A program made the position numbers and the translations under genes. Shown one piece after another: positions 10,699-25,947 of a stretch of DNA of 25,979 bases. Under the pieces are notes generated by a model. That model ran no database searches, had not been told where the DNA came from, and saw only the letters and a list, made by a program, of their open reading frames with translations. Within the stretch, counting starts at the first letter, position 1, and each line of letters starts with the position of its first letter. Source of the stretch: Pyrinomonadaceae bacterium (lineage in GTDB: Bacteria; Acidobacteriota; Blastocatellia; Pyrinomonadales; Pyrinomonadaceae); assembly GCA_035633995.1 (NCBI GenBank), contig DASQDV010000194.1, forward strand, positions 1-25,979, in the 5' to 3' direction.

Positions 10699-10701
10699 AA
10701 A

Positions 10702-12063
10702 TTAATCTCCTTTCACACGCGCCGACTCAATGGCGGGCACGCCCCCCTGCTTTGCCCCGACCACCGCCGCCACGCGCGGCGACGGCAATAGTTCGCTGTA
10801 AAGATTCAGCACGTCTTTCACCAGACGCTCCTTCGAATAATGCTCCACGACAAACGCGCGCCCGCGCTCGCCGAGCGTGCGCCGCAAGTTTTCGTCCGCC
10901 GCGAGCCGCCGCAAGGCTTCGCAAAAAGCCTCCGCATCATTCGTCCGCACGCGCACGCCGCGCTCGCAGACCGCGTAAGCTGCTGCTTCTGCTGCCGTCG
11001 CCGCCGCACCGGGCTGGCCGACGAGATCAACCACGCCGCCGACGGCGGTTGCCACGACCGGGCGCGCGTTCGCCATCGCCTCGATGAGCGTCAGGGGCGT
11101 GCCCTCGTTCAGAGATGAGAGCGCGACGATGTCGAGCGCGGCATAAAAATTTTCCGGGTCGTCGCGCATTCCCGTAAACGTCACATGCGGCGCGATGCCG
11201 AGCGTGCGCGCGTGCGCTTCGAGTTCGCCGCGCAAGTGGCCGTCGCCGACGACGACGAAGCGCACGCCGCTCGCCCCCGTTGTCTCGCCGTCTGATTCGA
11301 GCGCCGCGTCGCTGCCCTCGCCGTCGTGCCGTTTCAGGTAGAGCGCGGCGGCTTCGAGGAACAACTTGTGGTTCTTGATCTCCGTCAGACGCCCGACGAT
11401 GCCGATGAGCAACTCGCCCGCACGCGCGCCCAACTCCGTGCGCGCCGCCGCGCGCCGCTCGCGCCAACCTGCGAATGCCTGAACGTCCAGCCCCAGCGGA
11501 ATCACTTTGAACTGGCGAGCGCGCCCGACGCCGAACTGCTCGTGTATCTCGCGGTACTGCTGCTGGCTGATCACGACGATCCTGTCCGTCGCCGCGCGCG
11601 CGAGGAGTTTTTCGATGGTCAAAAACACCTGCGTCTTCAAGCGCCCGTAGTAACTATGAAAAATGTGCCCGTGATACGTGTGCACGAAGCGACAGGCGCG
11701 CGGTCGCCCCGCGAGCGCCGACGGCGTCAGCCAGCGATAGAGTAGCCCAGCGACGCGCCCGACCGTTCCCGCCTTCGCCGTGTGCGTGTGCACGATGTCC
11801 GGCTGCAAACGCCGGAACAGGCGGTACAGTTTCCAGATCGTCACGGCGTCCTTCGGCGACACCTCGCGGCTCATCTGGGGCAGAATGATCGGGTGGACGC
11901 CCTGTTCCGCCGCGAAGTAGCTCATGTCGTCTTCGCCCGGCGGCACCACCCCGGCGATCAACTCCGACTCGATCCCGAAGCGCCGCGTCGCCGCCGTCAG
12001 CCAGGCCACATGCTTCGCCGGGCCGCCCACGTTCAAACGCGCGATGATGCGAACAACCTTCAT
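10702..12063 (-). CDS. Glycosyltransferase family 4 (GT-B)
   Basis: MKVVRIIARLNVGGPA, VHTHTAKAG, HTYHGH, GRLTEIKNH, SLNEGTPLTLIEAMA (EX7E). Confidence 0.9.
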   Translation of the reverse strand: MKVVRIIARLNVGGPAKHVAWLTAATRRFGIESELIAGVVPPGEDDMSYFAAEQGVHPIILPQMSREVSPKDAVTIWKLYRLFRRLQPDIVHTHTAKAGTVGRVAGLLYRWLTPSALAGRPRACRFVHTYHGHIFHSYYGRLKTQVFLTIEKLLARAATDRIVVISQQQYREIHEQFGVGRARQFKVIPLGLDVQAFAGWRERRAAARTELGARAGELLIGIVGRLTEIKNHKLFLEAAALYLKRHDGEGSDAALESDGETTGASGVRFVVVGDGHLRGELEAHARTLGIAPHVTFTGMRDDPENFYAALDIVALSSLNEGTPLTLIEAMANARPVVATAVGGVVDLVGQPGAAATAAEAAAYAVCERGVRVRTNDAEAFCEALRRLAADENLRRTLGERGRAFVVEHYSKERLVKDVLNLYSELLPSPRVAAVVGAKQGGVPAIESARVKGD

Positions 12064-12181
12064 AGTCCGTCGTCCGTAGCCAGTTGTCAGTTGTTTTCGT
12101 CCGGCCTAACCTGAGAGCCTTATCTTTAGCTCGTCGCTCATGAGCCACGAACAACGGACAACTGACGATGGACAACGGACG
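12064..12181. repeat. 118-bp intergenic inverted-repeat element with heptamer-repeat arms (copy C)
   Basis: Five heptamers per arm in register: AGTCCGT CGTCCGT AGCCAGT TGTCAGT TGTTTTC versus ACGAACA ACGGACA ACTGACG ATGGACA ACGGACG. The left arm abuts the GT4 ATG with no gap. Confidence 0.85.
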
Positions 12182-12186
12182 GCCTT

Positions 12187-12738
12187 TCAATCTTCCATTG
12201 TATAAATCGTCGCCGGATCGTCTTCGTGCCTGATCTCGTCTATTTCGGCGCGTTTGCCTTCGCCCATGTAGAGGCTGTTGGGGCAGTTGATGACGATGCC
12301 TGCCACGCTCCCGACGTTGCGATAAGCGTGGACGACGCCTTTCGGGACGAGCACCGCTTTCGGGTTGTCCGCGCCGACGTAGAGCGTCATCACCTGGTTG
12401 TAAGTTTCCGAATCCCGCCGGTTGTCCCACAAACGGAGCTTGAAATTCGAGGGGCCGATGAAGACGAAGAAGTCCGCCTGATCGACGTGCTCGTGCGGGC
12501 CGCGCTGCACATGCGGCTCGGTCGAGGAGATGTAAGACATGACCGGGAAATATTCCGCCTCCATCTCGTCGTGGCGGAACAACTCGGCGAGCCAGCCGCG
12601 CTCGTCCACGAACTTGCGCACGTCGCGGACGACCACATCGCGAATCTTCCCGCGCTTAAACTGCGGCGACGCCGTTTCCTGCTGCGGCTGCTGCTCCTCC
12701 TCCTCCTTCGGCGTCTGGCGCTTAGGCGTGGATTGCAT
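12187..12738 (-). CDS. dTDP-4-dehydrorhamnose 3,5-epimerase family protein (RmlC-like cupin)
   Basis: DERGWLAELFR, RGPHEH, VPKGVVHAY; overlaps the nucleotidyltransferase gene by 17 nt. Confidence 0.75.
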   Translation of the reverse strand: MQSTPKRQTPKEEEEQQPQQETASPQFKRGKIRDVVVRDVRKFVDERGWLAELFRHDEMEAEYFPVMSYISSTEPHVQRGPHEHVDQADFFVFIGPSNFKLRLWDNRRDSETYNQVMTLYVGADNPKAVLVPKGVVHAYRNVGSVAGIVINCPNSLYMGEGKRAEIDEIRHEDDPATIYTMED

Positions 12739-13486
12739 TAACGGCCTCCTTCCGGTTCTCCATCTTGTTGGCGCCCGTCTCGGCCACGAGCGTCCCGGCG
12801 TGCAGCAAACTCTCGAACGTGCCCGCGTCAGTCCACCAGCCTTCGAGTTCGTTCCAGGTCATCTCGCCGCGCTCGATGTAGGCGTTGTTCACGTCTGTGA
12901 TCTCAAGTTCGCCGCGCTCCGAAGGCTTGAGCGTCTTGATGATCTCGAACACTTCGGCGTCGTACATGTAGACGCCGATCACGGCGTAGTCGGACTTCGG
13001 CTGTTTCGGCTTCTCCTCGATGCGCACGACGCGCGACCCCTTGAGTTCGGGCACGCCGAAACGCTGCGGGTCGGAGACCTGCTTCAGGAGTATCTTTGCG
13101 CCGCCGCCCTGATGCCGGTAGGCGCGCACCGCCTGACAGATGTTGCCCTCGATGATGTTGTCGCCGAGGACGATGCAGACGGGTTCGCCGTCGGCGAAGT
13201 CTTCGCACAGAGAGAGGGCAGCCGCGATGCCGCCCTCGCCCTCCTGATACGTGTAGTTGAGGTGCTTGAGGCCGAACGCTCGCCCGTTCTTCAACAGCTT
13301 GAGAAAATCCCCGGCGGAGTTTCCGCCCGTCACGATCATGATGTCCCTGATCCCGGCGTTCACCAAAGTCTGAATCGGGTAATAAACCATCGGCTGATTA
13401 AAAACCGGCAGCAAGTGCTTATTCGTCACCGCCGTCAACGGCATCAGACGCGAGCCGAGCCCGCCAGCTAACACGATACCTTTCAC
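12722..13486 (-). CDS. rfbA: Sugar-1-phosphate nucleotidyltransferase (RmlA/RfbA/SpsI-like)
   Basis: KGIVLAGGLGSRLMPLT, NKHLLPV, VLGDNI, EEKPKQPKSDYAV, SERGELEITDVN, WTDAGTFESL. GTG start with GGAGGA SD. Confidence 0.85.
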   Translation of the reverse strand: MKGIVLAGGLGSRLMPLTAVTNKHLLPVFNQPMVYYPIQTLVNAGIRDIMIVTGGNSAGDFLKLLKNGRAFGLKHLNYTYQEGEGGIAAALSLCEDFADGEPVCIVLGDNIIEGNICQAVRAYRHQGGGAKILLKQVSDPQRFGVPELKGSRVVRIEEKPKQPKSDYAVIGVYMYDAEVFEIIKTLKPSERGELEITDVNNAYIERGEMTWNELEGWWTDAGTFESLLHAGTLVAETGANKMENRKEAVNAIHA

Positions 13487-13630: not shown

Positions 13631-15517
13631 TCAATCAATAAACCGCTGAAACCATAACTCAAGCATGAGCAACGTCCATAACTGGTGCGCGTAGTCGCGC
13701 TCGCCGCGCGTGTGGAGTTCGACCATGCGCGCGACGGCTTCGGGGCGGAAGAAGCCGCGCCCGAGCGCCTTCTCCGAGAGCAGCGTCTCGCGCAGGAACG
13801 CGTTCATCTCGCCGCGCAGCCAGTGGCCGATGGGGACGCCGAAGCCCATCTTGCGCCGCTGCAAATTCTCCGCCGGGAGCAGTTTCGCCAGCACGCGCTT
13901 CAAGAGATATTTCGTCGTCAAGCCCCGCAGCTTCAGGTTCTCCGGCAAACTCGCGGCAAACTCTATCACGTGATGATCGAGAAACGGAGAGCGCGCTTCG
14001 AGCGAAACGGCCATGCTCGCAATGTCAACTTTGACGAGCAGGTCGTTCGGCAGGTAAGTCATCGTATCGGCCAGGAGCGACGCGTCCACCAGCCCCGCGC
14101 CGTTGGCGTGCGCAAACCAGGGCGCGACGAAATCGGCGGCTTCGTGTCCCTGCATCTCGCGCCGGAAATCCGCCGTGTAGAGGTCGTCTTTCGCCGATGC
14201 GTCGAGCACGCTGATCCAGCGCATGTAACGCTCGACGGTCGGGAGCGAGGCGGCGTCGAGAAAGCGTTTGAGGTCGCGCGCGCGCGAGCGCCGCGTCTCC
14301 GAAGTCGGGTAAAGCGCAACCGCATTTTTGATCAAGCCTTCGCGCAGCAGGCCGGGGACGCTGCGGTACTTGCCCGCGAGTTTCATCGCGGCGTAGCGTT
14401 CGTAACCGGCGAAGCACTCGTCGCCGCCGTCGCCGTTCAGGGCGACGGTGACATGGCGGCGCGTCTCGCGCGAGACATAGTAAGTCGGGATCGCGCTGGA
14501 GTCCGCGTAAGGCTCGCCGTAATGTTCGACGAGCGTGGGCAGCACTTCCATCGCGTCCGGGCGCACGATGAACTCGTGGTGCTCCGCGCCGACGTGTTCG
14601 GCGACGCGGCGCGCGTGGTGCAATTCGCTGAAATCCTGTTCCTCGAAACCGATGGAGAAAGTTTTGACGGGCGTGCTCGACACTTCGCTCATCAGCGCGA
14701 CGACCGCCGACGAATCCACGCCTCCCGACAAAAACGCGCCGAGCGGCACTTCCGACATCAGGCGCACGCGCACGGCCTCGCGCAAAATCTCTACGGCGCG
14801 CTCGCCCGCCTCCGCCTCGCTCATACGCGTCTTCTTGGAAAAGTCCGGCTGCCAGTAACGCTCGATCTTAATCTCGCCGTCGCGCGGCGTGTAGCGCAGA
14901 GTGTGGCCGGGTTCGAGTTTGCGTATGTCTCGATAGACGGTGAGCGGCGCGGGCACGCACATGAAGGTGAGGTAGTGGTGGATGGCCTCGCGGTCGATCT
15001 CGCGGCTGACATCAGGGTGCTGAAGGAGCGCGGCGAACTCCGAGCCGAAGACGAATTGATCGGCGAGTCGCGCGTAGAGCAGCGGCTTTTTGCCCACGCG
15101 GTCGCGCGCTAAAAACAGCTCACCGCGCCGCTCGTCCCAGATGGCGAAGGCGAACATGCCGCGCAGGTGCTTGGGACACTCCGTGCCGTACTGTTCGTAG
15201 GCTTCGAGGACGACTTCCGTATCGCAGTCGGTGTGAAACACGCGACCGAGTTCTTCCAGACGCTTGCGGACTTCCTTGTAGTTGTAGATTTCGCCGTTGA
15301 AGACGATCCAGCTTGTGCGCTGTGCGTTGTGCATCGGCTGCTGGCCGCTCTTGAGGTCGATGATGGCGAGGCGGCGCATGGCGAGGCCGACCGACTCGTG
15401 CAGATAACTGCCCTCCTCGTCCGGCCCGCGATGGCGGATCGCCTCGTTCATACGCGCGAGCACGCCCGCGTCCACCGCGCGCCCCTCGCGCCGCACCATG
15501 CCTGCGATTCCACACAT
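13631..15517 (-). CDS. asnB: Asparagine synthase (glutamine-hydrolysing) family amidotransferase, glycan-locus type
   Basis: N-terminal MCGIAG, HRGPD, RLAIIDL, FNGEIYN, RDRVGKKPL, FLSGGVDSS, LNGDGGDE, KVDIASMA, EARSPFLD. Confidence 0.92.
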   Translation of the reverse strand: MCGIAGMVRREGRAVDAGVLARMNEAIRHRGPDEEGSYLHESVGLAMRRLAIIDLKSGQQPMHNAQRTSWIVFNGEIYNYKEVRKRLEELGRVFHTDCDTEVVLEAYEQYGTECPKHLRGMFAFAIWDERRGELFLARDRVGKKPLLYARLADQFVFGSEFAALLQHPDVSREIDREAIHHYLTFMCVPAPLTVYRDIRKLEPGHTLRYTPRDGEIKIERYWQPDFSKKTRMSEAEAGERAVEILREAVRVRLMSEVPLGAFLSGGVDSSAVVALMSEVSSTPVKTFSIGFEEQDFSELHHARRVAEHVGAEHHEFIVRPDAMEVLPTLVEHYGEPYADSSAIPTYYVSRETRRHVTVALNGDGGDECFAGYERYAAMKLAGKYRSVPGLLREGLIKNAVALYPTSETRRSRARDLKRFLDAASLPTVERYMRWISVLDASAKDDLYTADFRREMQGHEAADFVAPWFAHANGAGLVDASLLADTMTYLPNDLLVKVDIASMAVSLEARSPFLDHHVIEFAASLPENLKLRGLTTKYLLKRVLAKLLPAENLQRRKMGFGVPIGHWLRGEMNAFLRETLLSEKALGRGFFRPEAVARMVELHTRGERDYAHQLWTLLMLELWFQRFID

Positions 15518-16942
15518 TTAAGAATCTATCCTCTCGGAAAGCCCGCGCGCGATCTCAGCCCACTCGCTGTCGCGTTCGCGCCGCCACTGCTCGTAACGCC
15601 TGCGCGCCAGACGCTCCTGCGCCGCGCGCATCAACGCTTCCTTCTTCATCCGCGCCAGACGCTCACGCTCCTCGCTGCGCTCCTTCAAAAGCACGGCGCC
15701 GACCGACACGAAGATAAAATAGAAGACCAAAAGCTGCGACCGCTGCCGGTACGCCGTCCCCACGTTCCCCTGAAAGATCGAGTACGCCAATGTCAGCATC
15801 GTCGTGAAGATCAAAATCGGCAACGCCTGCCGCATACGGTAGCGCAGCGTGAACCAGATGCCCATCACGAGCAGCGGGAAGGATGCCCACCAGATGAACA
15901 TCTCTGGCAAGGTGATGCTCTGCCGCAGATTAGCCAACTGCCACGGAAATGGCGCGAACAACAGATACACCATGCCGAGCGGGATGGTTTGGAGCGCGCC
16001 CGAAGCGGTTGAAACGTCCACATCGCGCCCGAAGCCGGATTCGGTGGTCGCCAAATCGGCGCGGCTTCGCTGCACGCGTTCGAGGCTGCCGAACTCTTCA
16101 AACTGCTGGGTCGCGCGGCGCAGCACGCCGAAGTAAGTCATCGTCAACCCGATGGCGACGAGGACGACGAACTGCCGCATCAGAGATTGACTCGTGACGC
16201 GCCGCATCCCGATCATGAACGCCCCGCCCGCCGCCGCAATCGCCATGTAAAAGATGTAGAAGCGCAAGCTCAACAACCCGAGCAGCGCGCCGACGAGGAC
16301 GAGAAAAAATTTCGCGCTGAGTTGCTCGCCGAGCTTGAGCGTCGCCAGCATCGCGGCGACCAGACAGAAGATGATCGGCCCGTCTTTTAACCCCTGCGAC
16401 GACCACAGGACGAGTGAGGGGAAGAAGGCCACGAACAGCGCCGTCAAACGCGAAACGCGCGTGTTCTCAAACATGTGCTGCGCGCAGAGGTAAGCCAGCG
16501 GCGCGGTCGCCGCGCCGATCACCCCGTTGACGTACTGCACTGCGAGCAGGTTGCGCCCGATAGCGGCGTAGATGCCGCCGATCAGGTAGGCCATGCCCCA
16601 GCCGACCGACTCGTAACCCTGTAGCGGATTCTTGTAGAACGGGTCGCCCTGCCACGACTTCAACATCCACGTCCCGAGTTGGTCGTAGGCCGTCGCGTCG
16701 CCGCCGAAGAAGTCCTGTAGTTCGAAACCGAAGATGAGCGTGCCGACGAGCATCCTGACGAGCAGCCCGGCGATGAAAATATAGAACAGGAACGCGCGAT
16801 CAATTTCGATGCGACGCACGGCGAAGCCTGCGACGAGCGCGGCGACGAGGCAGACGAGCACCGCCGGCGCGCCGTAGGTCGGCACAAACACGGCGATGAC
16901 CAAACACATCGCCAATGCCATCACGGTAAGAACTGCGTTCAT
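15518..16942 (-). CDS. Polytopic membrane protein, GT-C/PMT-like or Wzy-like (paralog 2)
   Basis: About 11-12 TM segments; FFGGDATAYD, SQGLKDG, QGNVGTAYRQRSQL; strong similarity to 17006-18424. Confidence 0.75.
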   Translation of the reverse strand: MNAVLTVMALAMCLVIAVFVPTYGAPAVLVCLVAALVAGFAVRRIEIDRAFLFYIFIAGLLVRMLVGTLIFGFELQDFFGGDATAYDQLGTWMLKSWQGDPFYKNPLQGYESVGWGMAYLIGGIYAAIGRNLLAVQYVNGVIGAATAPLAYLCAQHMFENTRVSRLTALFVAFFPSLVLWSSQGLKDGPIIFCLVAAMLATLKLGEQLSAKFFLVLVGALLGLLSLRFYIFYMAIAAAGGAFMIGMRRVTSQSLMRQFVVLVAIGLTMTYFGVLRRATQQFEEFGSLERVQRSRADLATTESGFGRDVDVSTASGALQTIPLGMVYLLFAPFPWQLANLRQSITLPEMFIWWASFPLLVMGIWFTLRYRMRQALPILIFTTMLTLAYSIFQGNVGTAYRQRSQLLVFYFIFVSVGAVLLKERSEERERLARMKKEALMRAAQERLARRRYEQWRRERDSEWAEIARGLSERIDS

Positions 16943-17005
16943 AACCCCTGAATCGAAAACCCCGCGCGCCTTCGCCGACGCCGCCGTAGCCCGTTCGAGC
17001 CTTCG

Positions 17006-18424
17006 CTAGATCGGCTCGCGGTTCACGAAAGCCTCCGCCGCCGAAGCCGTGTGCGCTCCCGGCGCTCTGCGCGCGCGTGTGGCGCCCTCCCTGATCGCGC
17101 GGCGCTGCTCCTCCAACGCCATAGACACCTTGCGCTGCCTGTCCTCGCGCCGCTCCTTCAAGATGACGGCTCCAACCGACACGAAGATAAAATAGAAGAC
17201 CAGAAGCTGCGACCGCTGCCGGTACGCCGTCCCCACGTTCCCCTGAAAGATCGAGTATGCCAATGTCAGCATCGTCGTGAAGATCAAAATCGGCAACGCC
17301 GGTCTCATGCGATACTTTAACGTAAACCAGATGCCCATCACGAGCAGCGGGAAGGATGCCCACCAGATGAACATCTCCGGCAGCGTGATGCTCTGCCGCA
17401 AATTAGCCAACTGCCACGGAAACGGCGCGAACAACAAATACACCATGCCGAGCGGAATCGCCTGCAACGCGCCTTCGGTCGTCGAAACGTCAACGTCGCG
17501 CCCGAAGCCCGACTCGTAGCTCGCCAGATCGGAGCGGCTCCGCTGCACGCGTTCCAGATTGGCGTAAGTTTCAAACTGTGCGGTCGCCGTGCGCAGCACG
17601 CCCAGATATGTCATCGAAAGGCCGAGCGCGACGACGATAGCCATCTGCCTGATCACGCTGCCGGGGCCGACGGGCGGGCGAACGCCGATGAGCAGCGCGC
17701 CGCCCGCCGCCGCAATCGCCATGTAAAAGACGTAGAAGCGCAAACTCAGCAACCCGAACAGGGCGAAGACGAGCATCGCAAAAAATTTGACGCTCAAACC
17801 CTCGCTCAACTTGAGCGTCGCCAGCATCGCGGCCACGAGCAAAAAGACGATGGGCCCGTCCTTGAGCACCTGCGACGACCACAGGACGAGCGAGGGGAAG
17901 AAGGCCACGAGCACCGCCGTCAAACGCGAAACGCGCTTGTTCTCAAACATGTGCTGCGCACAAAGGTAAGCCAGCGGCGCGGTCGCCGCGCCGATCACCC
18001 CGTTGACATACTGCACCGCGAGCGAATTGCGCCCGACGAGCGAATAAACGACGGCCACGACATAGCCCAATCCCCACCCGCCGCTTGAGTAGCGCTCCGT
18101 CACGTTCTCGAATTCGGCGTTGCCCTGCCAACCTTCGATGATCCACAAGCCGAGTTGGTCGTAGCCCAGCGAATCGCCGCCGAAGAAGGCTTGCAGACGA
18201 AGCATGTAGATTCCCGTCGCCACGAGCACGCGCACGAACAGCGCGGCGGCGAAGAGTTGCAACATAAACTCTTTGTCGTGCCCTTCGAGAGTCAGGTTGA
18301 AGGCGACGAGCGCAATGCCCGCGCTGCTGATCAGGATGAGCACCGCCGGCGCGCCGACGCCGGGAAACATCATGATGATGCCGATGCAGAAAATAAACGC
18401 TAGGAGAACTAGAAATCCGTTCAT
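17006..18424 (-). CDS. Polytopic membrane protein, GT-C/PMT-like or Wzy-like (paralog 1)
   Basis: About 11-12 TM segments; FFGGDSLGYD, SQVLKDG, QGNVGTAYRQRSQL; tandem duplicate of 15518-16942. Confidence 0.75.
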   Translation of the reverse strand: MNGFLVLLAFIFCIGIIMMFPGVGAPAVLILISSAGIALVAFNLTLEGHDKEFMLQLFAAALFVRVLVATGIYMLRLQAFFGGDSLGYDQLGLWIIEGWQGNAEFENVTERYSSGGWGLGYVVAVVYSLVGRNSLAVQYVNGVIGAATAPLAYLCAQHMFENKRVSRLTAVLVAFFPSLVLWSSQVLKDGPIVFLLVAAMLATLKLSEGLSVKFFAMLVFALFGLLSLRFYVFYMAIAAAGGALLIGVRPPVGPGSVIRQMAIVVALGLSMTYLGVLRTATAQFETYANLERVQRSRSDLASYESGFGRDVDVSTTEGALQAIPLGMVYLLFAPFPWQLANLRQSITLPEMFIWWASFPLLVMGIWFTLKYRMRPALPILIFTTMLTLAYSIFQGNVGTAYRQRSQLLVFYFIFVSVGAVILKERREDRQRKVSMALEEQRRAIREGATRARRAPGAHTASAAEAFVNREPI

Positions 18425-18457
18425 GGCTTTTTACTGTAGCGGGGGCTTCTACAACTT

Positions 18458-18602
18458 AGGGGACAGGGGAGAGGGACAAGGGGAAAGGCGAAAGAGGGAT
18501 AAGATTTGTCGAGCGCGACTTTTATCGAGCGTGGCTTGTATCGAATGTGCCCGGGCGCGCGTGCGTCGCTTCCTTTTCCCTTTAGCCTTTCCCCCTTCCC
18601 CT
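18458..18602. repeat. Inverted repeat with purine-rich AGGGGAA / TTCCCCT heptamer arms
   Basis: AGGGGAC AGGGGAG AGGGACA AGGGGAA AGGCGAA (18458-18492) versus TTTCCCT TTAGCCT TTCCCCC TTCCCCT (18575-18602); 6 nt from the carbamoyltransferase stop. Confidence 0.75.
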
Positions 18603-18608
18603 GACGTT

Positions 18609-20318
18609 TTACTGTTTTCGCAACACCAGATGGTTCTCCAACACGAGCGCGTCGAAGTTCGCGCCCTGAAAAGTTTTGATGGCGTCCGAGGGGCGGCAGA
18701 CGATGGGTTCCTGAATGTTGAAAGAGGTGTTCAGGAGCATCGGGCAGCCGGTCAGTCGCTCAAACTCGTCGATCAAATTCCAGTAGCGCGGGTTCGTCCG
18801 GCGGCTCACGGTCTGCGGCCTGGCCGTGCCGTCTATGTGGACGACCGAGGGGAAGCGCGCGCGCTGCTCCTCTGTGACGTGCAAGACCGTCACCATGAAC
18901 GGATCGTAGTGCGGGCGACCGAAAATCTCCTCGCTCACTTCCTCCTTCATCGAAGGCGCGAGCGGGCGAAACCACTCGCGCAGTTTCACCTTCTTGTTCA
19001 ACAACTCGCGCATGTCGTAGCGGCGCGGGTCGGCGATGAACGAGCGGTTGCCGAGCGCGCGCGGCCCAAACTCCATGCGCCCCTGAAACCAGCCGATGAT
19101 CGCGCCGTCCGCAATCATCTGCGCCACGCGCGGCAGCATCTCCGAATCTTCGAGCGTCTCGAACTTCAAGCCTGCGCTGCTGAGTTCGGCGGCGCACTCT
19201 GCGGACGTGAAGCCGGGGCCGTAGTAGGCATGTTCCATCCTGCGCGTGCGCGGCTGCCGGAGGATCGTGTGGTGCACCATGAGCGCCGCGCCGAGCGAGC
19301 AGCCCGCGTCGCCCGCCGCCGGTTGCACGTAATAGTTTTTAAACGGCGACTCGGTCATGATCCGCCCGTTCATCACGGAGTTGAAGGCGACGCCCCCGGC
19401 CATGCACAAATTTTCTTCGCCCGTCATCTCGTGCAGGCCTTTGATGAGGTGGAGCGCGGTGTCTTCCAGAACCTTCTGCGCGCTGGCGGCGATGTTCCAG
19501 TGGCGCTCGGTCAAATCCTCGTCGGGCTGGCGCGGCGGCCCAAGCGCACGGCTGATCTCGTCGCCGAACTGGTAATGCTTGGCGAGGTGGTGATCGAGCA
19601 CGCGGATGTTGAAATTAAAATCGTAGTTGCCGTTGACGGAGAGCACGCGCTCGCGGAAGAAGTCGTAGTATACGGGTTTGCCGTAAGCCGCGAGGCCCAT
19701 CACCTTCCACTCGTCGCCGCCGAACATGTCGAAGCCGATGAAGTTCGTCACCGCCGAATAGAACTGGCCGAGCGAGTGCGGCAGCTTGATGCGCTTCAAG
19801 ACCTCTATGCGCTGGCCGTCGCTGCGTGAGAAAAGCGTCGTCGTGTCTTCGCCCGTCCCGTCCCAGGTCAGGATGGCGCTCGTGTCGAAGCCGGAGACGA
19901 AGAAGGAACTGGCCGCGTGGCACTGGTGATGTTCGAGGAAGTGGAAACGAAAATCGCTCGGCCCGAAATGTTTGCGTATAAGTTTCGGGTGGCGCAACAT
20001 GCCGAGGTAGCTCTGGCTTACCTGCGCCACGCCGCGATCCGCGCGCGCCTTGAACATATCGCGCGAGATGAGTCCCGACTTCAACGCCTGCAAAGCCTTG
20101 TGGCGCAAAATCCAGGGCTTCCAGTAGAGGCCGATGTGCTCTACGTCCTTGATGCCGATGCCCGCTTCTTCGAGGCAGTACTGCATCGCGTGGTAGGGGA
20201 AGCCGCTGTGATGTTTACGGCGTGAAAAGCGTTCCTCTTCCGCCGCCGCGACAATTTCGCCGTCGCGCAGGAGCGTCGCCGCAGAATCGCCCAGAGTTGT
20301 TAGTCCAAGAATATACAT
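18609..20318 (-). CDS. Carbamoyltransferase (NodU/CmcH family)
   Basis: AAAEEERFSRRKH, EHHQCHAASSF, WDGTGE, SLGQFY, MGLAAYG, GGVAFNSVMNG, GRMEFGPRALGNRS, REWFRPLAPS, LLNTSFN. Confidence 0.92.
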   Translation of the reverse strand: MYILGLTTLGDSAATLLRDGEIVAAAEEERFSRRKHHSGFPYHAMQYCLEEAGIGIKDVEHIGLYWKPWILRHKALQALKSGLISRDMFKARADRGVAQVSQSYLGMLRHPKLIRKHFGPSDFRFHFLEHHQCHAASSFFVSGFDTSAILTWDGTGEDTTTLFSRSDGQRIEVLKRIKLPHSLGQFYSAVTNFIGFDMFGGDEWKVMGLAAYGKPVYYDFFRERVLSVNGNYDFNFNIRVLDHHLAKHYQFGDEISRALGPPRQPDEDLTERHWNIAASAQKVLEDTALHLIKGLHEMTGEENLCMAGGVAFNSVMNGRIMTESPFKNYYVQPAAGDAGCSLGAALMVHHTILRQPRTRRMEHAYYGPGFTSAECAAELSSAGLKFETLEDSEMLPRVAQMIADGAIIGWFQGRMEFGPRALGNRSFIADPRRYDMRELLNKKVKLREWFRPLAPSMKEEVSEEIFGRPHYDPFMVTVLHVTEEQRARFPSVVHIDGTARPQTVSRRTNPRYWNLIDEFERLTGCPMLLNTSFNIQEPIVCRPSDAIKTFQGANFDALVLENHLVLRKQ

Positions 20319-20473: not shown

Positions 20474-21421
20474 TTACGCCTTCGACGCCTCTTCTCCCGT
20501 GCGACGCGCCCACGCGTACATGTAGGGGCTGCGCCCCAAAGCATTCGCCACGCGTTCGACGACGCGCGTGCCGACGCGCTCGACCCCGCCCCACACGCCG
20601 CCGCGACTCGGCACGACGAGGCCGCCCGGATAAACCACCAGATTTTCGATCCGAAAGTCGTTGCGCTCCAGCACGAAGCGCAGCGAGCGCGGGCTGAAAC
20701 CCTGTATGTGATAGAGATTCCACGTCGGGCAGAGATTCACCACCCAATCCAGCCCGCGCGCTTTGTAATAAAGATTCCCCAGACTTTGATAGACGCTCTC
20801 CTCGTTCGGCGTGCTGATGTACACCAGCCCGCCCGGTCGCACCACGCGCCGCAGTTCCCTCACCGTCTCCGCCGGGTCGTACAGGTGCTCGATGACCTCG
20901 ACGAGCGTGACCACATCGAACGAAGCGTCGGGGTAGTTCATCCCTTCGAGCGTCGCCGCCGTCGCGCGCACGCCGTTCACCTCGCGCGCGTAGCGCACGA
21001 AATCTTCCGACAGGTCGCAGCCTTCCGCCTCCCAGCCGCGCGCCTGCGCCGCCGCCACCACCTCGCCGCGCCCGCATCCCACGTCCAGAAAACGCCCGCG
21101 CCGCCCCAGAAGTCTTTCAGCCTCGCGCGCCAGCTTGTCGCCCAACTGCCGCTGGCTCTCGTCCGTCACGCTCATCACGCCTTCAAAGTAGCCGGAGACG
21201 TTTGTATAACGCGTGTCCTCGCCCGACGGGTAGGGCATGGGGTTCGGGAAGATCAAGTTGCAGGTGCGGCATTTGACGATGCGCGTTTTTGCGCCCGCGC
21301 CGTCGCGGTGCGCCTCGCCGCCGCGCGAACCGAGCACGCGAAAATCGCGCCCGCCGCACACCTTGCACGCCTCGTCGCGAAACTCCCACGCCTGCTGCTG
21401 CTGATGACCGTTGCCGCTCAT
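20474..21421 (-). CDS. Class I SAM-dependent methyltransferase with N-terminal CxxC...CxxC motif
   Basis: CKVC...CRTC, FLDVGCGRG, FDVVTLVEVIEHL, YISTPN. ATG at 21421; alternative GTG at 21457. Confidence 0.85.
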   Translation of the reverse strand: MSGNGHQQQQAWEFRDEACKVCGGRDFRVLGSRGGEAHRDGAGAKTRIVKCRTCNLIFPNPMPYPSGEDTRYTNVSGYFEGVMSVTDESQRQLGDKLAREAERLLGRRGRFLDVGCGRGEVVAAAQARGWEAEGCDLSEDFVRYAREVNGVRATAATLEGMNYPDASFDVVTLVEVIEHLYDPAETVRELRRVVRPGGLVYISTPNEESVYQSLGNLYYKARGLDWVVNLCPTWNLYHIQGFSPRSLRFVLERNDFRIENLVVYPGGLVVPSRGGVWGGVERVGTRVVERVANALGRSPYMYAWARRTGEEASKA

Positions 21422-21483
21422 GTCTTCACTCGACCCGCCTCGAAACACGGCGCACACACGCGCCGACGCGCTTCAGCCGCGAC

Positions 21484-23721
21484 CTACGGCGCAACTCCAC
21501 GCTTATCCAGTATGTAACGCTTGTCGGCGAAGATGCGCCGGACGGTGCTGAAAATCGAGCGGCTGATCCAATCGTCTTCCAGACAGAAGCGCGCCACCTC
21601 CGCACGCACGGGACGCCGTTTCCTGAGCGCGGTGCGGCATTGCAGGTAGCCCTGAAAATAACCGGCCAGCCCGTAGAAAAAGTATGCGAACGAGCGAAAG
21701 CGTATGCCGCGCAGCGTCAACCAGAACAGATTGCGCACGAAGACGAGCGGCAGAAAGCGCCACGGCAGATGTTTCAGGTTGAACCACGCGGCGTTGCGGA
21801 AACCGCGCCCGTAGCGTTTCCACGAACGCTGCTGCCGGCTCTCGCGGTGATACGACAGGCAGCGCGGCTCGTAGATGACTTTGTAGCCCGCGTCCCAGAG
21901 GCGTATGGCGAGATCGTCTTCGGTGGCGTAGATGAAAAAGTCGTCGTCGAAATAGCCGCACTCGTCCAGAACATCGCGCCGGATGGCCGCGCCGCACGCC
22001 GCGAAAGAAGTGATCTCGCGCTCGCGCCCCGGCTCGGTCGGAACTAATCGTTCTTCCCACAGGTGCGTCACGAGGCTGTTCAAATGCGGGTTCATCACGC
22101 GAAACGACATGACGCCCACGTCTTTATTCGCCTCGTCTTCCCACAGCTTCACCATCGTCTCGATTGATTCGGGCGCAAGGTGCGAGTCGTCGTCGAGCAT
22201 GGCGACGTACTTGCCGCGCGCCGTCGCAAAGCCGACGTTGTAGCCCGTCATGCCGGTGTTTTCGTGCAGGCGCACGACCGTCACTTCGGGAAACTTCTCG
22301 TAGATCATCTGCGCCGTCCCGTCCTTCGAGCCGTTGTCCACGACGATCAACTCGATGTTCGGGTAAGTCAGCTTGCGTAGTTCCTGCAAACCGATCTCGA
22401 CCTCGCCCTTGCGATTCCACGCGAGCATGACGATGCTCACGAGCGGCTGCGCCTCGCCCGCGCGCGCGAGCGCGGCGGCTTCGGGGCGGACGATGCCGAG
22501 GATGGTCTGCACGAGCACGGGCGCGCGGTGGCGACCCGGACGCGTGCGGTCTTCCAGATCGCGCACGGCGAGTTTGACGTTCGTGCCGCGCAGCGCCTCT
22601 TCGTCGAACGTGAAATAGCCTTCGACGCCCTGATGCTGCGGCACGTTGGCGATCAGGTAATGGTACGCGCCCTCGCCGACGTGTTCGTTGATCTTCTGCG
22701 CGAGTTCCCTGCCCGTCGCGCCGCGCGTGTCCGCCTCTTCGACGATGTTGACGACCATGATCTTCGTCGCCGTGCTTCGCCGGATCGCATCGCTGATGCC
22801 GTCAATCATCAGCGTCGGCAAAAGCGAAGAGTGGAACGTGCCCGGCCCGTAGATGATCACGTCGGCGCGCTCCAAAGCTTCGAGCGCGCCCGGGCTTGCT
22901 GCGGTCGGCGCGTGGACTTCACGACGAATGCGCTCGCGCGCCGCCTCCAAGCCCGACTCCGCGACCCACTTGTCCAGGCCGAGCGGCGCGACGCGCTCTT
23001 TGGCGAGAAAGAGTTCGAGGATGTCGCCGTCGGCGTCCGTGATGACGGCGCATTCGCTTGGGAGCACGCGCCCGTCCGTGCAGACCGCGAACAGGTGCCG
23101 GTTCTCTTCCGAAGCGATCTCGATGCGCCCGCGCACCTGCAAAACTTCTTCGAGCGCGCGCAGAGCCTGCGTCCAACTGCGCCCGTGCTCAAGATACGCG
23201 CCGAGCAGAATGCAGTTGCCGAGCGCGCAATCGGCGAAGGAAAACTCCGCGCCCTCCGTGCTTTCGCGCCTGACGAGTTCCGCTAAAAAGAGGCGCAGGT
23301 AATCTACGAACCGCTCGCGCGCGTCGGCGGGCATGCGCGCCACCATCTTCAACAGTTCGCGCCGCTCCCCGCGTGCCAGTGCCTCGCCGCCCGTCGCGCA
23401 GAGGTCTTCGATCTCGCGCCGGAAGTCTGCGGCGCGCTCTGCCTCCGCCGGGTAACGGTACGCGAAGACTTCGTAGCGCGACCAGTAGCCGGGCGCGTCG
23501 AGGTTCATCAGCGAGAGCAGATTTTTGCGCAGGTCGGAGGGGCCGAGTTCGTCGAAGACGTAGCGCAGGCGTCCGGTGCTCAAACCGTCGTCGTAGGCGT
23601 TGACGAGACAGGTGACGCGCGCGCCCTGATCGAGCAGTTGATTGGCGAGCGTGCCGCTGCCGCGCCCGCCGCACAATATGACGACGTGAAAGCCGCTGGC
23701 CGATTGAAGCAATTCTTTCAT
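21484..23721 (-). CDS. Fusion of a YvcK/CofD-like (UPF0052) N-terminal domain and a GT2 glycosyltransferase
   Basis: N-terminal part: VILCGGRGS, VNAYDDGLSTGRLR, GPSDLRKNL, LGNCILLG, ADVIIYGPGTFHSSLLPTL, GRH. C-terminal part: LVSIVMLAWNR, IVVDNGSKDGT, MLDDD, FDDDFFIYATEDDLAIRL. Confidence 0.85.
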   Translation of the reverse strand: MKELLQSASGFHVVILCGGRGSGTLANQLLDQGARVTCLVNAYDDGLSTGRLRYVFDELGPSDLRKNLLSLMNLDAPGYWSRYEVFAYRYPAEAERAADFRREIEDLCATGGEALARGERRELLKMVARMPADARERFVDYLRLFLAELVRRESTEGAEFSFADCALGNCILLGAYLEHGRSWTQALRALEEVLQVRGRIEIASEENRHLFAVCTDGRVLPSECAVITDADGDILELFLAKERVAPLGLDKWVAESGLEAARERIRREVHAPTAASPGALEALERADVIIYGPGTFHSSLLPTLMIDGISDAIRRSTATKIMVVNIVEEADTRGATGRELAQKINEHVGEGAYHYLIANVPQHQGVEGYFTFDEEALRGTNVKLAVRDLEDRTRPGRHRAPVLVQTILGIVRPEAAALARAGEAQPLVSIVMLAWNRKGEVEIGLQELRKLTYPNIELIVVDNGSKDGTAQMIYEKFPEVTVVRLHENTGMTGYNVGFATARGKYVAMLDDDSHLAPESIETMVKLWEDEANKDVGVMSFRVMNPHLNSLVTHLWEERLVPTEPGREREITSFAACGAAIRRDVLDECGYFDDDFFIYATEDDLAIRLWDAGYKVIYEPRCLSYHRESRQQRSWKRYGRGFRNAAWFNLKHLPWRFLPLVFVRNLFWLTLRGIRFRSFAYFFYGLAGYFQGYLQCRTALRKRRPVRAEVARFCLEDDWISRSIFSTVRRIFADKRYILDKRGVAP

Positions 23722-23766
23722 CTTAAACTACGAGGTGATCCTTGAACCTGCGAACAGGCACTCAAG

Positions 23767-23858
23767 CTTTCCGCGCCTTAAAGTTTTCCTCACTTCGCGC
23801 CTTTGTGTGGAAAACCGTTTTACGCAAAGGCGCAAAGTTAAAACGTAAGGCGCGAAGT
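23767..23858. repeat. Inverted repeat built from four AAGGCGCRAAG-type units (two reverse, two forward)
   Basis: CTTTCCGCGCCTTA and ACTTCGCGCCTTTGTGT on the left; ACGCAAAGGCGCAAAGT and ACGTAAGGCGCGAAGT on the right; symmetry centre near 23816. Confidence 0.75.
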
Positions 23859-23914
23859 AGTTCTGAATCCCACTCAAAAATATCCTTCTTCAGGAAAGCG
23901 TCAATAATGCACAA

Positions 23915-24946
23915 TCAAACTCGCGCCGACAAGCGCAGAATGTGCGCCAGGAAACGTTCGGTCGCCGCCGTGCCCGCCGCGCCCGTCATGCGCGCGAGCG
24001 AGACGACGCCCGCCGCCGCTTCCGCTTCGTGCCCGCCCGCGACCGACAAACACAGCGCGCGCGGGAAGAGTTGCGGGATCACATAATCGTTCCCGCCCGC
24101 GAAGAACTCGTCGCCGACATAAACGGACGCCTCTTCCACGTCGCCCTCGCACGCGCCCGACGACGCCGAAAGTTCCGCCATCGCGTCGCGCATCGCGGCC
24201 TCTTTCGAGACGCCGCGCCGCGTGATCTCGATGCTGCTGCGCCCGCTCTCGGCCAGTTCGTAACGGTCACTCAAACGCGCGCGTTGCAGCAACTCAAGCC
24301 CGCGTGCGTAAAGTTCCGCGCGTGGATTCGTCGTCGCCGCTGCGTCGTCCGCCGCCGCGTGAATCCGCGAAGGCACGGGGCGCAGCACGAGCACCGCGCC
24401 TTCGCGCTCCGACACGCGCGCGGGCAGCGTCGAGAAATCGAAGCGCGGGAACGCCGCCTCGTACCAACGCCCGCGCGCCTTCACGTCAACTTCAAACTCC
24501 GCCCATAGAGATTCGAGCAGACGGCTGAGCGCCGGAACGTCTTCGGCGCGCAGTTGATAACGCTCCCCGTAAACTTCGTCAACCTCACGGCGCGCGCCGT
24601 CGCAGACGATCTTCGTCGCGCCGCGATTGGCATAAACTCTGAGGCGTTCGACGCATGCCGCCTTGCCCGACTCGCGCAGGTTTTCAATAACGGGCGCGAC
24701 GAGGCGCGCTTCGAGTTGCCGCCAGCCGTGCCCCGTGATGAGACAGACGCGGAAGCCGCGCCGCAGCAGTTCGGGAAGCCCGGCGGCTGCCGCGCTCTCC
24801 GCGAAAGTCTCTTCGCCCGCGCCGCCGTCGGCGCGCACGCGCGCCAGGAGCGTGTCGTCAACGTCGAGCACGAGCGCGCCCTTTTGTCGCAGACGCTCGA
24901 CGCGCCCCGCGTCCATCAATTCCTCAAGTTCGACGCGCGCGTTCAT
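23915..24946 (-). CDS. HAD superfamily subfamily IIB phosphatase/phosphomutase-like protein
   Basis: Motif I LDVDDT, motif II LITGHG, motif III GVSKEAA, motif IV YVGDEFFAGGNDY. Start reassigned to ATG 24946, which forms an ATGA overlap with the upstream stop; the track's longer 25285 start lies inside the upstream gene. Confidence 0.8.
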   Translation of the reverse strand: MNARVELEELMDAGRVERLRQKGALVLDVDDTLLARVRADGGAGEETFAESAAAAGLPELLRRGFRVCLITGHGWRQLEARLVAPVIENLRESGKAACVERLRVYANRGATKIVCDGARREVDEVYGERYQLRAEDVPALSRLLESLWAEFEVDVKARGRWYEAAFPRFDFSTLPARVSEREGAVLVLRPVPSRIHAAADDAAATTNPRAELYARGLELLQRARLSDRYELAESGRSSIEITRRGVSKEAAMRDAMAELSASSGACEGDVEEASVYVGDEFFAGGNDYVIPQLFPRALCLSVAGGHEAEAAAGVVSLARMTGAAGTAATERFLAHILRLSARV

Positions 24947-25947
24947 GCCGTCTCGACAGCGCCGCCCGCACACAACCTGTTTGCCGTCTCGCGCGCCGCC
25001 TGCTCGCACCATGCGCGCACTTCCGCGTCGCCCGCAACGGACGCACCGCGCACCTCCGCTGCGAGCGCATCGGGCAGGTAGCGGCGCAGGCTGTCGGCGT
25101 GCGGCAGGCAGACCCGCCCGCCCATCTCCCGCGCGCCGACGTAGCGCGCGGCAAGCGCGGATTGCGCGAGCGAGCGCGGGATGAGCCACGCGCTCGCGCC
25201 GCGCCACACGACGTTGCAGGGCACGCGCCGCTCGCCGCTCGCCGCGCTCCCTCGTGCGAGCGCAGAGAGCATCTCGAACAACCACGCGGCCAGATTCTCC
25301 GTGCGCTTCGATTCGACCGCGAGCACGTAAGCCGGATACGACTCGGCAAGGCGCGACACGCGGAAGTCTCCCGATTCGTAGAGCATCTCCGCCACGCCCG
25401 CCGCGCCGTGCGACATGGGAAACTCCCAGGGGTAGGCTTGAAAGTGTGCCCAGTCAACGATGGAGGCGGCGGCCTGCTCCATGTTGTGTATGAACGTCCA
25501 AGCCCCGTGTGCGCGCGCGAGGCGCGAGAGGTCGAGCACGTCTGCGTGCGTCAGTTCGGCGCGCTTCTCTTCCGGCCAGATGACGAGATGACCGGGCACG
25601 ATGCTGTTCGGGTTGGCGGCCACGTTGAGCCCGCCCGCGCGCGCGAGTTGCAGGCGGCTCATCAATTCGAGATCGAAGGTCGCCGCCTGATTTTCCGGCA
25701 AACTCCCGACGCGCGTTTTGTAATCCTCGCGCGCCTTGCTGTAAAAGACCGTGCCCCAGCCGTACTCGCCGCAAGCGTCTCCGACGGCGTGCAACACCAG
25801 CAGGCGCGAATCGTAGCGCACCAGCCCGGACGCGTGCCGCTCCCACCACAAGTCCATCAACGCGTGCGACTGCGCCGCGCCGTCGTCTTGTTGCGCGGCG
25901 GTCGCTCGCGTGGTCGTTGACGATGATGTTGAGGCCGTTTCGTTCAA
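24943..25947 (-). CDS. HIT-like (GalT/Ap4A-phosphorylase/VTC2-type, DUF4922-like) nucleotidyl transferase or phosphorylase; possibly 5'-truncated
   Basis: NPNSIVPGHLVI and FIHNMEQAAASIVDWAHFQAYP resemble the NPxxxxxxHxxI and N...AgAS..HxHxQ signatures. The frame stays open from the TTG at 25947 to the window end. Confidence 0.6.
   Translation of the reverse strand: MNETASTSSSTTTRATAAQQDDGAAQSHALMDLWWERHASGLVRYDSRLLVLHAVGDACGEYGWGTVFYSKAREDYKTRVGSLPENQAATFDLELMSRLQLARAGGLNVAANPNSIVPGHLVIWPEEKRAELTHADVLDLSRLARAHGAWTFIHNMEQAAASIVDWAHFQAYPWEFPMSHGAAGVAEMLYESGDFRVSRLAESYPAYVLAVESKRTENLAAWLFEMLSALARGSAASGERRVPCNVVWRGASAWLIPRSLAQSALAARYVGAREMGGRVCLPHADSLRRYLPDALAAEVRGASVAGDAEVRAWCEQAARETANRLCAGGAVETA

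Follow-up and report, generated by a model that had tools for sequence, protein, structure and literature searches.

A YvcK-like domain fused to a family 2 glycosyltransferase in a polysaccharide locus of Pyrinomonadaceae

Introduction

What does a YvcK-type fold do when it shares a polypeptide with a glycosyltransferase? We address this question for a window of 25,979 nucleotides (nt; the whole stretch of DNA analyzed here, contig DASQDV010000194.1 of GenBank assembly GCA_035633995.1) from a Pyrinomonadaceae bacterium of the phylum Acidobacteriota. One gene in the window encodes a 745-amino-acid (aa) protein in which a YvcK/CofD-like domain is fused to a family 2 glycosyltransferase (GT2) domain. 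YvcK, GlmR, and CuvA matter for envelope integrity and virulence in Bacillus, Listeria, and Mycobacterium, and there is dispute over whether they act as UDP-sugar sensors or as enzymes. An initial annotation of the gene had assigned its N-terminal part to the YvcK/CofD family and had proposed a direct role for this fold in glycan assembly. Our analysis identifies the fusion as a real, conserved, uncharacterized variant within the CofD/YvcK superfamily. Names for the architecture exist in annotation pipelines (the source-pipeline label is 'GT2 family glycosyltransferase/2-phospho-L-lactate transferase...'), but we found no published characterization of it, or of the clade and gene cassette described below, in the full-text literature.

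Results

Domains of the fusion protein

The gene and its parts are as follows.

21484..23721, minus strand: whole gene, encoding the 745-aa YvcK/CofD-like plus GT2 fusion protein P0001 (open reading frame and translation, Pfam, orthologues)
22486..23721, minus strand: YvcK/CofD-fold domain, aa 1-412 (Pfam, 79-sequence alignment, AlphaFold, Foldseek)
23254..23487, minus strand: helical insert of four helices, aa 79-156 (gap relative to 2hzb and 2o2z, secondary structure of the model)
22444..22485, minus strand: short Ala-rich linker of 14 aa, aa 413-426 (model, orthologue conservation, metagenome variants)
21484..22443, minus strand: GT2 (GT-A) domain, aa 427-745, and stop codon (Pfam, Protein Data Bank [PDB] sequence matches to GT2 enzymes, conservation)

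The open reading frame (ORF) begins at an ATG and continues for 745 codons without an internal stop, and the orthologues of its product cover 100% of the length at 54 to 91% identity. The motifs that the initial annotation had read from this frame are in place (GGRGS at aa 18, DDGLSTGRLR at aa 44, and GPGTFHSSLLP at aa 292), as is the linker, whose sequence PEAAALARAGEAQP begins at aa 413 and is predicted to be helical over aa 413-419. Pfam CofD (PF01933) matches aa 13-361 (E = 1.8e-43; 149 bits, cutoff of 30), and Glycos_transf_2 (PF00535) matches aa 429-587 (E = 1.7e-24; 87 bits, cutoff of 23.3), with three more GT2 models, including PF13641 and PF13632, reaching aa 684. The GT2 domain is complete, as first described, and is an intact inverting GT-A glycosyltransferase domain: 33 orthologues share its motifs VDNGS (460s), MLDDDSH (the DXD motif, 508-514), and TEDDL (600-604) without variation. 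Among the same orthologues, invariant positions make up 44% of the GT2 half, 20% of the YvcK-like half, and 7% of the linker; both domains are under purifying selection. The end of the GT2 half (aa 650-745) is basic and aromatic and lacks a classical transmembrane helix by hydropathy. Transmembrane anchoring of the fusion was dropped as a possibility, there being no 19-residue window with a hydropathy above 1.3.

Integrity of the fused frame

The same appearance could arise if a missed stop, a frameshift, or a chimeric contig had united what are really two genes, and the source genome is a fragmented metagenome-assembled genome (MAG; 912 contigs, 82% complete, 6% contamination). Two related loci are broken: the halves lie in different frames exactly at the linker in one metagenome contig (L089, 3040-3160), and another locus (L020, about 10001-12300) is split inside the YvcK-like domain into ORFs of 234 and 522 aa. 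Against an artefact, the fused frame is continuous in 16 of 16 related Pyrinomonadaceae-type genome loci, which come from independent MAGs and studies (one genome per species was scanned). Approximately 38 protein clusters from NCBI, JGI, ENA, and Logan assemblies (54 to 91% identity) carry both Pfam domains over 100% of their length, and every cluster bearing an organism name is from Pyrinomonadaceae. Four of the six other genomes of the same genus have the fusion at 91 to 92% identity. The initial annotation had raised a missed stop or misassembly at the linker as a concern; in soil-metagenome contigs of four studies, the linker varies only by -1/+1 indels that occur in pairs (22456-22461) and leave the reading frame intact. 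These contigs cover every bin of the fusion gene, with no single contig spanning all of it; taken alone they are modest evidence, and the independent assemblies carry the weight. We regard misassembly as excluded for practical purposes and a joining artefact of any of these kinds as highly improbable. The damaged relatives, among them a third with one in-frame TAA (G047:C104:6879-9113), may reflect sequencing errors, or natural decay or splitting.

Identity of the N-terminal domain

The N-terminal domain scores below all curated cutoffs, with 127 of the required 196 bits for YvcK (TIGR01826), 102 of 340 for the CofD-like protein of the GAK system, and 28 of 257 for F420 CofD (TIGR01819). Compared with the PDB, a profile of 79 relatives matches YvcK structures at 1e-42 and CofD (3c3d) at E = 0.048. 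An AlphaFold model of the domain, built from the 79-sequence alignment, has a predicted local distance difference test (pLDDT) value of 93.9 and a predicted template modeling (TM) score of 0.93. In Foldseek searches, this model matches the YvcK structures 2hzb, 2ppv, and 2o2z (E = 6e-21 to 1e-18; TM scores of 0.83 to 0.86 by target), followed by FbiA/CofD (E = 3e-10 to 8e-7; TM score of about 0.6) and by no further significant fold matches. A tree with outgroups, which includes one badly extracted row (L108, branch length 10), separates F420 CofD, YvcK, and the clade of the fused domain from one another, with support of 100 for CofD and a Shimodaira-Hasegawa-like approximate likelihood ratio test (SH-aLRT) value of 72 for the clade. 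The initial annotation, which had itself suggested a phylogeny against GlmR and CofD, was therefore right about YvcK (1e-42; TM score of 0.85) and not about CofD (0.048; 0.6). The domain is YvcK-like, neither an F420 CofD nor a canonical YvcK, and forms its own clade.

That a genuine F420 CofD (2-phospho-L-lactate transferase) was fused by chance to a glycosyltransferase, as the name of the Pfam family and the 'CofD family' labels assigned automatically in the source databases might suggest, is close to inconceivable in light of these scores and of the fully supported, separate F420 CofD branch; moreover, the 82%-complete source genome has no match over the cutoff for TIGR03552 (cofC) or TIGR01916 (cofE), and the seven family genomes searched have no F420 cofD. 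Two other affiliations were dropped, namely membership in the GAK system, for the bit score given above, and a link to mycofactocin or arsenosugar, for which generic MftF-like GT2 matches were far below the cutoff.

The fused domain shares with YvcK/GlmR/CuvA (UPF0052, TIGR01826; 2hzb, 2o2z, 2ppv, 2q7x) both the fold and the motifs GGxG, DDGxSxGxLR, PxxDxRK/N, SLGN, GPGT/SxxSSxxP, N, and R/K-H. Unlike YvcK, a stand-alone protein of about 320 aa with a cell-wall-precursor gene context (yvcJ-yvcK-whiA, or UDP-GlcNAc genes such as glmU), it has an insert of about 80 aa, is fused to a GT2 within a total of 745 aa, and lies in a polysaccharide locus with genes for a haloacid dehalogenase-superfamily (HAD) protein and a nucleotidyltransferase. 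The insert (aa 79-156) has no counterpart in solved YvcK or CofD structures and holds a near-invariant arginine, R89. A canonical YvcK is encoded elsewhere in the source genome (351 bits for TIGR01826; contig C506, L001 1318-2379, minus strand), directly upstream of glmU.

Invariant or near-invariant positions among 79 sequences of the clade are G18, G19, G21, N41, D44, D45, G46, S48, T49, G50, and R53; G60, P61, S62, D63, R65, K66, and R89; and D164, N169, E223, D287, S298, S299, P302, N325, and H398. By shared motif rather than by residue-level superposition, D44/D45 and D63 correspond to Asp45 and Asp57 of FbiA, which bind metal (PMC7253369). The same D44/D45 pair corresponds, by a shared DDG motif and not by residue-level alignment, to D40/D41 of Listeria GlmR, which are needed for uridylyltransferase activity (PMC10128056). 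Two of the four residues with which YvcK binds UDP-sugars (T13, N217, Y264, and R300 in B. halodurans numbering; PMC5482804) are kept: N325 aligns with N217, and R397-H398 aligns with R300-H301, while T13 is replaced by a clade-specific arginine (R20) and Y264 falls in an unalignable region.

A widespread clade and its cassette

We delimited the clade by the motif N[AG]YDDG[LKR]ST, the helical insert, and neighboring genes for a HAD protein and a sugar-1-phosphate nucleotidyltransferase. The source protein has the motif and the insert, and its partners are present as non-homologous analogues. A total of 322 species genomes out of 185,579, from more than 10 phyla, carry the motif; among them are sphingomonads, Burkholderiales, Prochlorococcus, Synechococcus, Pelagibacteraceae (SAR11), SAR86, Geomonas, Clostridia, Bacteroidota, and Melainabacteria. 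Geomonas limicola Red745, Sphingomonas jatrophae S5-249, Novosphingobium aquimarinum M24A2M, and Clostridium sp. KNHs205 are cultured strains that have the cassette. An exhaustive search yielded 136 representatives at E < 1e-30, comprising stand-alone proteins of about 400 aa and many multidomain forms. The premise of the initial annotation that such proteins normally stand alone is true of canonical YvcK and CofD but not of this clade, whose members are often fused to a GT2, a nucleotidyltransferase, or a HAD domain. Extra segments are GT2-like in 179 of 210 cases among the collected proteins, a set biased toward GT2 fusions, and the rest are nucleotidyltransferase and HAD segments. One well-supported branch of the tree divides stand-alone from fused or long forms, and some stand-alone loci, such as that of Geomonas limicola, have a separate GT2 gene inside the cassette.

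For loci from other lineages than Pyrinomonadaceae, we took the 64 best and counted neighbors within 3 kb and on the same strand. A gene for a HAD protein of the beta-phosphoglucomutase (beta-PGM) family (family scores of 120 to 131 bits) follows the clade gene in 59 of these loci, and one for a GlmU-N-like sugar-1-phosphate nucleotidyltransferase follows it in 57; the cassette nucleotidyltransferases show weak MurU/GlmU-type similarity. Natural fusions combine the same parts, with the orders NT-CofDL-GT2, HAD-NT-CofDL-GT2, and CofDL-NT-HAD (NT, nucleotidyltransferase; CofDL, the CofD-like domain of this clade).

The largest forms are megaproteins. One HAD-NT-CofDL-GT2 protein has 1148 aa (P0232; L090 5698-9144), others (among P0141, P0169, P0172, P0140, and L052) are an NT-CofDL-GT2 protein of 955 aa and a CofDL-NT-HAD-IIB protein of about 1000 aa, and Omnitrophota have open frames of about 2900 aa with the same clade domain. 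Genes resembling B12-binding radical S-adenosylmethionine (SAM) methyltransferases recur beside distant cassettes (L007 4181-5590, L008 12878-14365, L090 12673-14193); the window has none.

Replaced partners in the Pyrinomonadaceae locus

The beta-PGM-like HAD protein and the GlmU-N-like nucleotidyltransferase that usually accompany the clade are found in 0 of the 16 Pyrinomonadaceae-type loci. Gene order in these loci is instead DUF4922-like, HAD-IIB-like, CofDL-GT2, one or more methyltransferases, a carbamoyltransferase, one or two PMT_2 glycosyltransferases of the GT-C type, and an AsnB-like amidotransferase. The two genes upstream of the fusion in the window are the following.

24943..25947, minus strand: upstream partner 1, a DUF4922/GDPGP1-like, HIT-superfamily candidate hexose-1-phosphate nucleotidyltransferase or phosphorylase (Pfam, Atlas, fold)
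23915..24949, minus strand: upstream partner 2, a HAD-IIB-like (phosphomannomutase [PMM]/Cof-like) candidate phosphomutase or phosphatase (NCBIfam, Atlas, alignment)

The HAD-IIB-like gene, whose start we set at the ATG matching its orthologues, is present in 16 of 16 related loci. Its product scores 25 bits for NCBIfam HAD-IIB, which is below the cutoff, has the Atlas features Hydrolase_3/PMM/S6PP, and carries the invariant motifs DVDDT, TG, K, and GD...ND; its profile matched PDB sequences only in non-significant rows for PMM and P-type ATPases. The DUF4922-like gene is found in 12 of the 16 loci, the remaining contigs being cut. Its Pfam match is marginal in the window (24.5 bits, cutoff of 23.6), yet 11 of 11 orthologues match, and the Atlas value is 0.96. 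Homologues of this protein are detectable by sequence only within Acidobacteriota, and its profile found nothing among PDB sequences. The structural model (pLDDT of 68) has fold matches to the GDP-L-galactose phosphorylase VTC5 (1e-7), GDPGP1 (5e-5), and GalT (3e-4); a Foldseek search of the model against the PDB gave none below 1e-3 (best Apa2, 1.7e-3). With VTC2/VTC5 and GDPGP1 the partner shares the Pfam DUF4922 family, the best fold matches, and an invariant His and Gln (H167 and Q169, in the invariant segment WAHFQAY); the first His of the HxHxQ-type motif is apparently replaced. Enzymes of the VTC2/VTC5, GDPGP1, and GalT types interconvert hexose-1-phosphate and nucleotide-diphospho-hexose (NDP-hexose). 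Judged by these resemblances, the HAD protein and nucleotidyltransferase of the usual cassette are replaced here by unrelated analogues of the same reaction types.

Downstream of the fusion, the window continues as a polysaccharide cluster in a soil acidobacterium.

20474..21457, minus strand: SAM methyltransferase, Methyltransf_23 with an N-terminal Cys-rich segment (Pfam; 16 of 16 loci)
13631..20318, minus strand: conserved downstream block (Pfam, NCBIfam; same order in L009-L024), made up of the next four genes
18609-20318, minus strand: NodU-like carbamoyltransferase
17006-18424 and 15518-16942, minus strand: two PMT_2-type GT-C membrane glycosyltransferases
13631-15517, minus strand: AsnB-like amidotransferase

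The methyltransferase encoded at 20474..21457 belongs to a subfamily that is also found beside distant fusions, with full-length BLAST matches of 1e-21 and 9e-19 to neighbors in L007 and L008; in contrast, its match to the other methyltransferase in the window is 4e-5.

Subtype of the fused GT2 and origin of the fusion

Distant CofD-like::GT2 fusions of 670 to 690 aa occur in Bryobacterales, Verrucomicrobiota, Bacteroidota, and Magnetococcales. They have the same domain order, belong to the same clade (about 30% identity), and in some loci lie near the same methyltransferase subfamily. Unlike the protein described here, they have a shorter GT2, and their neighbors are a small AglJ/DPM1-like GT2, a beta-PGM-like HAD protein, and an NTP_transf_3 enzyme. 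The GT2 of the Pyrinomonadaceae fusion matches unfused GT2 proteins encoded in the same clusters (about 340 aa long) at 81 to 89 bits over 238 to 292 aa, and it matches the GT2 of the distant fusions at about 46 bits over the N-terminal 105 to 127 aa only. It has no strong match to the ArnC, DPM1, or AglJ models either (18 bits for ArnC, 17 bits for AglJ), whereas the small GT2 beside the distant fusions scores 102 bits for AglJ. No such small GT2 and no ArnC/DPM1-type polyprenyl-phosphate glycosyltransferase was seen in the Pyrinomonadaceae-type clusters. These comparisons show that the GT2 fused in Pyrinomonadaceae is of a subtype other than that of the distant fused lineages. A single ancient fusion shared with a distant lineage would be consistent with the tree of the CofD-like domain, on which it requires one change, but the unrelated GT2 subtype contradicts it; an independent fusion or a domain swap would be the alternatives.

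Discussion

The fusion is best explained as a two-site, membrane-peripheral enzyme of a polysaccharide-decoration pathway. We tentatively favor a scheme in which the YvcK-like domain takes an NDP-hexose made by its neighbors and, by CofD-type chemistry, transfers hexose-1-phosphate to a lipid-linked glycan, which is also extended by the GT2. The PMM-like HAD-IIB protein and the GDP-hexose-phosphorylase-like DUF4922 protein would convert a hexose phosphate to NDP-hexose, which the YvcK-like domain would bind. As in CofD/FbiA, an acceptor oxygen would attack the beta-phosphate with the assistance of metal, and nucleoside monophosphate (NMP) would leave. Hexose-1-phosphate would thereby be moved to a polyprenyl-linked glycan intermediate or to polyprenyl phosphate, producing a phosphodiester or pyrophosphate link; the fused GT2 would attach a further sugar to this lipid-linked intermediate, the methyltransferase and carbamoyltransferase encoded next door would tailor the product, and the two GT-C enzymes would use it outside the membrane.

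Several observations argue for this scheme. The confidently modeled fold matches only YvcK and FbiA/CofD significantly, and the domain keeps the whole set of conserved Asp, His, and Arg residues; both halves of the protein are under purifying selection, and the motifs of the GT2 are invariant. The association with a mutase or phosphatase and a nucleotidyltransferase survives the replacement of both by unrelated analogues, which points to NDP-hexose as the shared intermediate and the likely ligand of the YvcK-like module. To our knowledge, the CofD/FbiA reaction (attack of an acceptor hydroxyl on the beta-phosphate, with NMP as the leaving group) is the only structurally established chemistry in the superfamily, and CofD depends on a partner nucleotidyltransferase; for these two reasons we favor hexose-1-phosphate transfer. 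Because the cassette always contains a separate nucleotidyltransferase, nucleotidyl transfer probably does not require the YvcK-like domain. The partner logic resembles that of CofC and CofD (FbiD/FbiA), an analogy that lends the scheme some support: the superfamily fold is shared, and here too the domain is paired with a nucleotidyltransferase presumed to make an NDP-activated donor. Unlike in CofC/CofD, this partner is of a sugar-1-phosphate type (GlmU-N-like, or HIT/GDPGP1-like here), an extra HAD protein is present, and a glycan or lipid carrier presumably takes the place of Fo as acceptor. Coupling to a GT2 takes three forms, namely fusion to the subtype found here, fusion to another subtype elsewhere, and an adjacent separate gene. 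The two GT-C enzymes need a lipid-linked donor, yet no ArnC/DPM1-type enzyme was seen, which we count in support of the scheme. The direct role in glycan assembly proposed in the initial annotation is borne out by the adjacent separate modules elsewhere, the fusion of two GT2 subtypes, and the polysaccharide locus; of the two mechanisms that it offered, donor channeling and a second, phospho-transferring module, the context moderately favors the second.

Other observations weigh against phospho-transfer. In sequence and structure, the domain resembles YvcK far more closely than CofD, and the documented activities of YvcK/GlmR are UDP-sugar binding with regulation of GlmS (PMC5482804, PMC7525490) and uridylyltransferase activity (PMC10128056), with phospho-group transfer not among them. 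The conserved Asp and His residues also occur in YvcK and so do not discriminate between readings. We know of no acceptor, product, or phosphodiester-containing glycan for any carrier of the cassette. The HAD partner could act as either a mutase or a phosphatase, the DUF4922-like model is of moderate quality (see above), and all substrate assignments are inferred from gene context. Sequence alone separates none of the three functional readings considered here.

The first competing reading, a strong rival that we hold to be somewhat less likely than the favored scheme, is that the domain behaves as GlmR does, binding the NDP-hexose made by its neighbors and gating or feeding the GT2 (by hand-off or feedback), or serving as an accessory nucleotidyltransferase, as reported for Listeria GlmR, with the glycan left unmodified. 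Its nearest relatives by hidden Markov model, profile, and fold are indeed YvcK/GlmR; N325 and R397 preserve residues N217 and R300 of the UDP-sugar site of YvcK, and D44/D45 match, by motif only, the GlmR aspartates required for uridylyl transfer. The canonical YvcK beside glmU in the same genome mirrors the pairing with a nucleotidyltransferase in the cassette, and the GT2 half is under the stricter constraint of the two halves. However, the cassettes already encode a dedicated nucleotidyltransferase, which would make a second one redundant, and the HAD-NT-CofDL-GT2 and CofDL-NT-HAD megaproteins resemble biosynthetic assembly lines. Retention of a complete metal-binding and His constellation and of the 80-aa insert across 322 species and more than 10 phyla would be unexpected for a pure regulator, and of the UDP-sugar contacts, T13 has become a clade-specific Arg and Y264 is not alignable.

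The second competing reading, an improbable one in our judgment, is donor synthesis of the MupP-AmgK-MurU type, a three-enzyme logic known from the MurNAc recycling pathway of Pseudomonas. The HAD protein would dephosphorylate a sugar phosphate, the YvcK-like domain would phosphorylate C1 in the manner of a kinase, and the nucleotidyltransferase would make the NDP-sugar for the GT2. In its favor, the CofDL-HAD-NT triad behaves as a self-contained precursor cassette in many different glycan loci, the nucleotidyltransferases have the weak MurU/GlmU-type similarity noted above, and inspection of cassette loci revealed no kinase gene. Against it, no protein of the CofD/YvcK superfamily is known to take a phosphoryl group from an NTP, the HAD partners look like phosphomutases (the beta-PGM family elsewhere, PMM-like here) that would already give sugar-1-phosphate, and Foldseek found no kinase-like match to the fold.

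The hexose-1-phosphate transfer that we favor would have functional analogues in the Stealth hexose-1-phosphotransferases, LicD, TagF-type enzymes, and polyprenyl-phosphate phosphoglycosyl transferases, all of which combine NDP-X with an acceptor to give acceptor-P-X and NMP. The likeness would lie in the reaction type, hypothetical here, and in the setting, a polysaccharide cluster with an NDP-X-making enzyme alongside; no sequence or structural match of the YvcK-like domain to any of these enzymes was seen, and the folds are unrelated.

The clade places the YvcK fold in a fixed enzymatic context (a HAD protein, a nucleotidyltransferase, and often a GT2), which narrows its chemistry and makes it assayable. 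What is new in the Pyrinomonadaceae locus is the swap of both the partners and the GT2 subtype, a natural experiment in which these were exchanged and the YvcK-like module was retained. It is conceivable, though we hold the idea with considerable reserve, that the clade represents a previously unrecognized class of phospho-sugar transferase, soluble or peripheral, which uses a YvcK scaffold for CofD-type chemistry and builds phosphodiester or pyrophosphate links into envelope glycans from NDP-hexoses. In that case, the YvcK/GlmR fold would be ancestrally catalytic, and the superfamily would have a third function besides F420 synthesis and UDP-GlcNAc homeostasis, one spread over hundreds of species, among them Prochlorococcus, SAR11, SAR86, and sphingomonads. 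Because the cassette occurs in abundant environmental bacteria, an unrecognized glycan modification could affect recognition by phages and grazers.

Some minor features of the window and its relatives complete the description. The window (1-25979) is the entire contig (C194), which truncates the cluster immediately 5' of the DUF4922-like gene; related loci extend further upstream, with at least two GT2 genes and, in some cases, another carbamoyltransferase and another methyltransferase. The AsnB-like glutamine amidotransferase is of the XrtA/PEP-CTERM type (698 bits) and lies within 10 kb of the cassette in 30 of the 64 distant and 9 of the 16 related loci; a possible role is amidation of a carboxyl group on the same glycan. 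Gene calls are uncertain around 12187-13486, where an ORF for an RmlC-like cupin (12187-12738, minus strand) overlaps a plus-strand ORF of 310 aa without a Pfam match (12539-13471). One putative regulatory feature was found.

23877..23904, minus strand: sigma-70-like promoter match TTGACG-16-TATTTT (weak; 1 found, 0.4 expected in shuffles)

This match lies in the 193-nt noncoding spacer (23722-23914) between the HAD-like and fusion genes and is the sole one of its kind in the region; in one relative (L005), the two genes are merely 13 nt apart.

The only near match in the literature, and a possible relic of the cassette, comes from Mycoplasma fermentans PG18, where a transposase-flanked island of Clostridial origin holds a GT2 synthase, the halves of a CofD-family pseudogene, and an NDP-nucleotidyltransferase (PMC11658790). 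The pseudogenes are evidently not needed for its glucofuranan. The island may have arisen by decay of such a cassette, and the clade does have Clostridial members (L033, L037, and L040).

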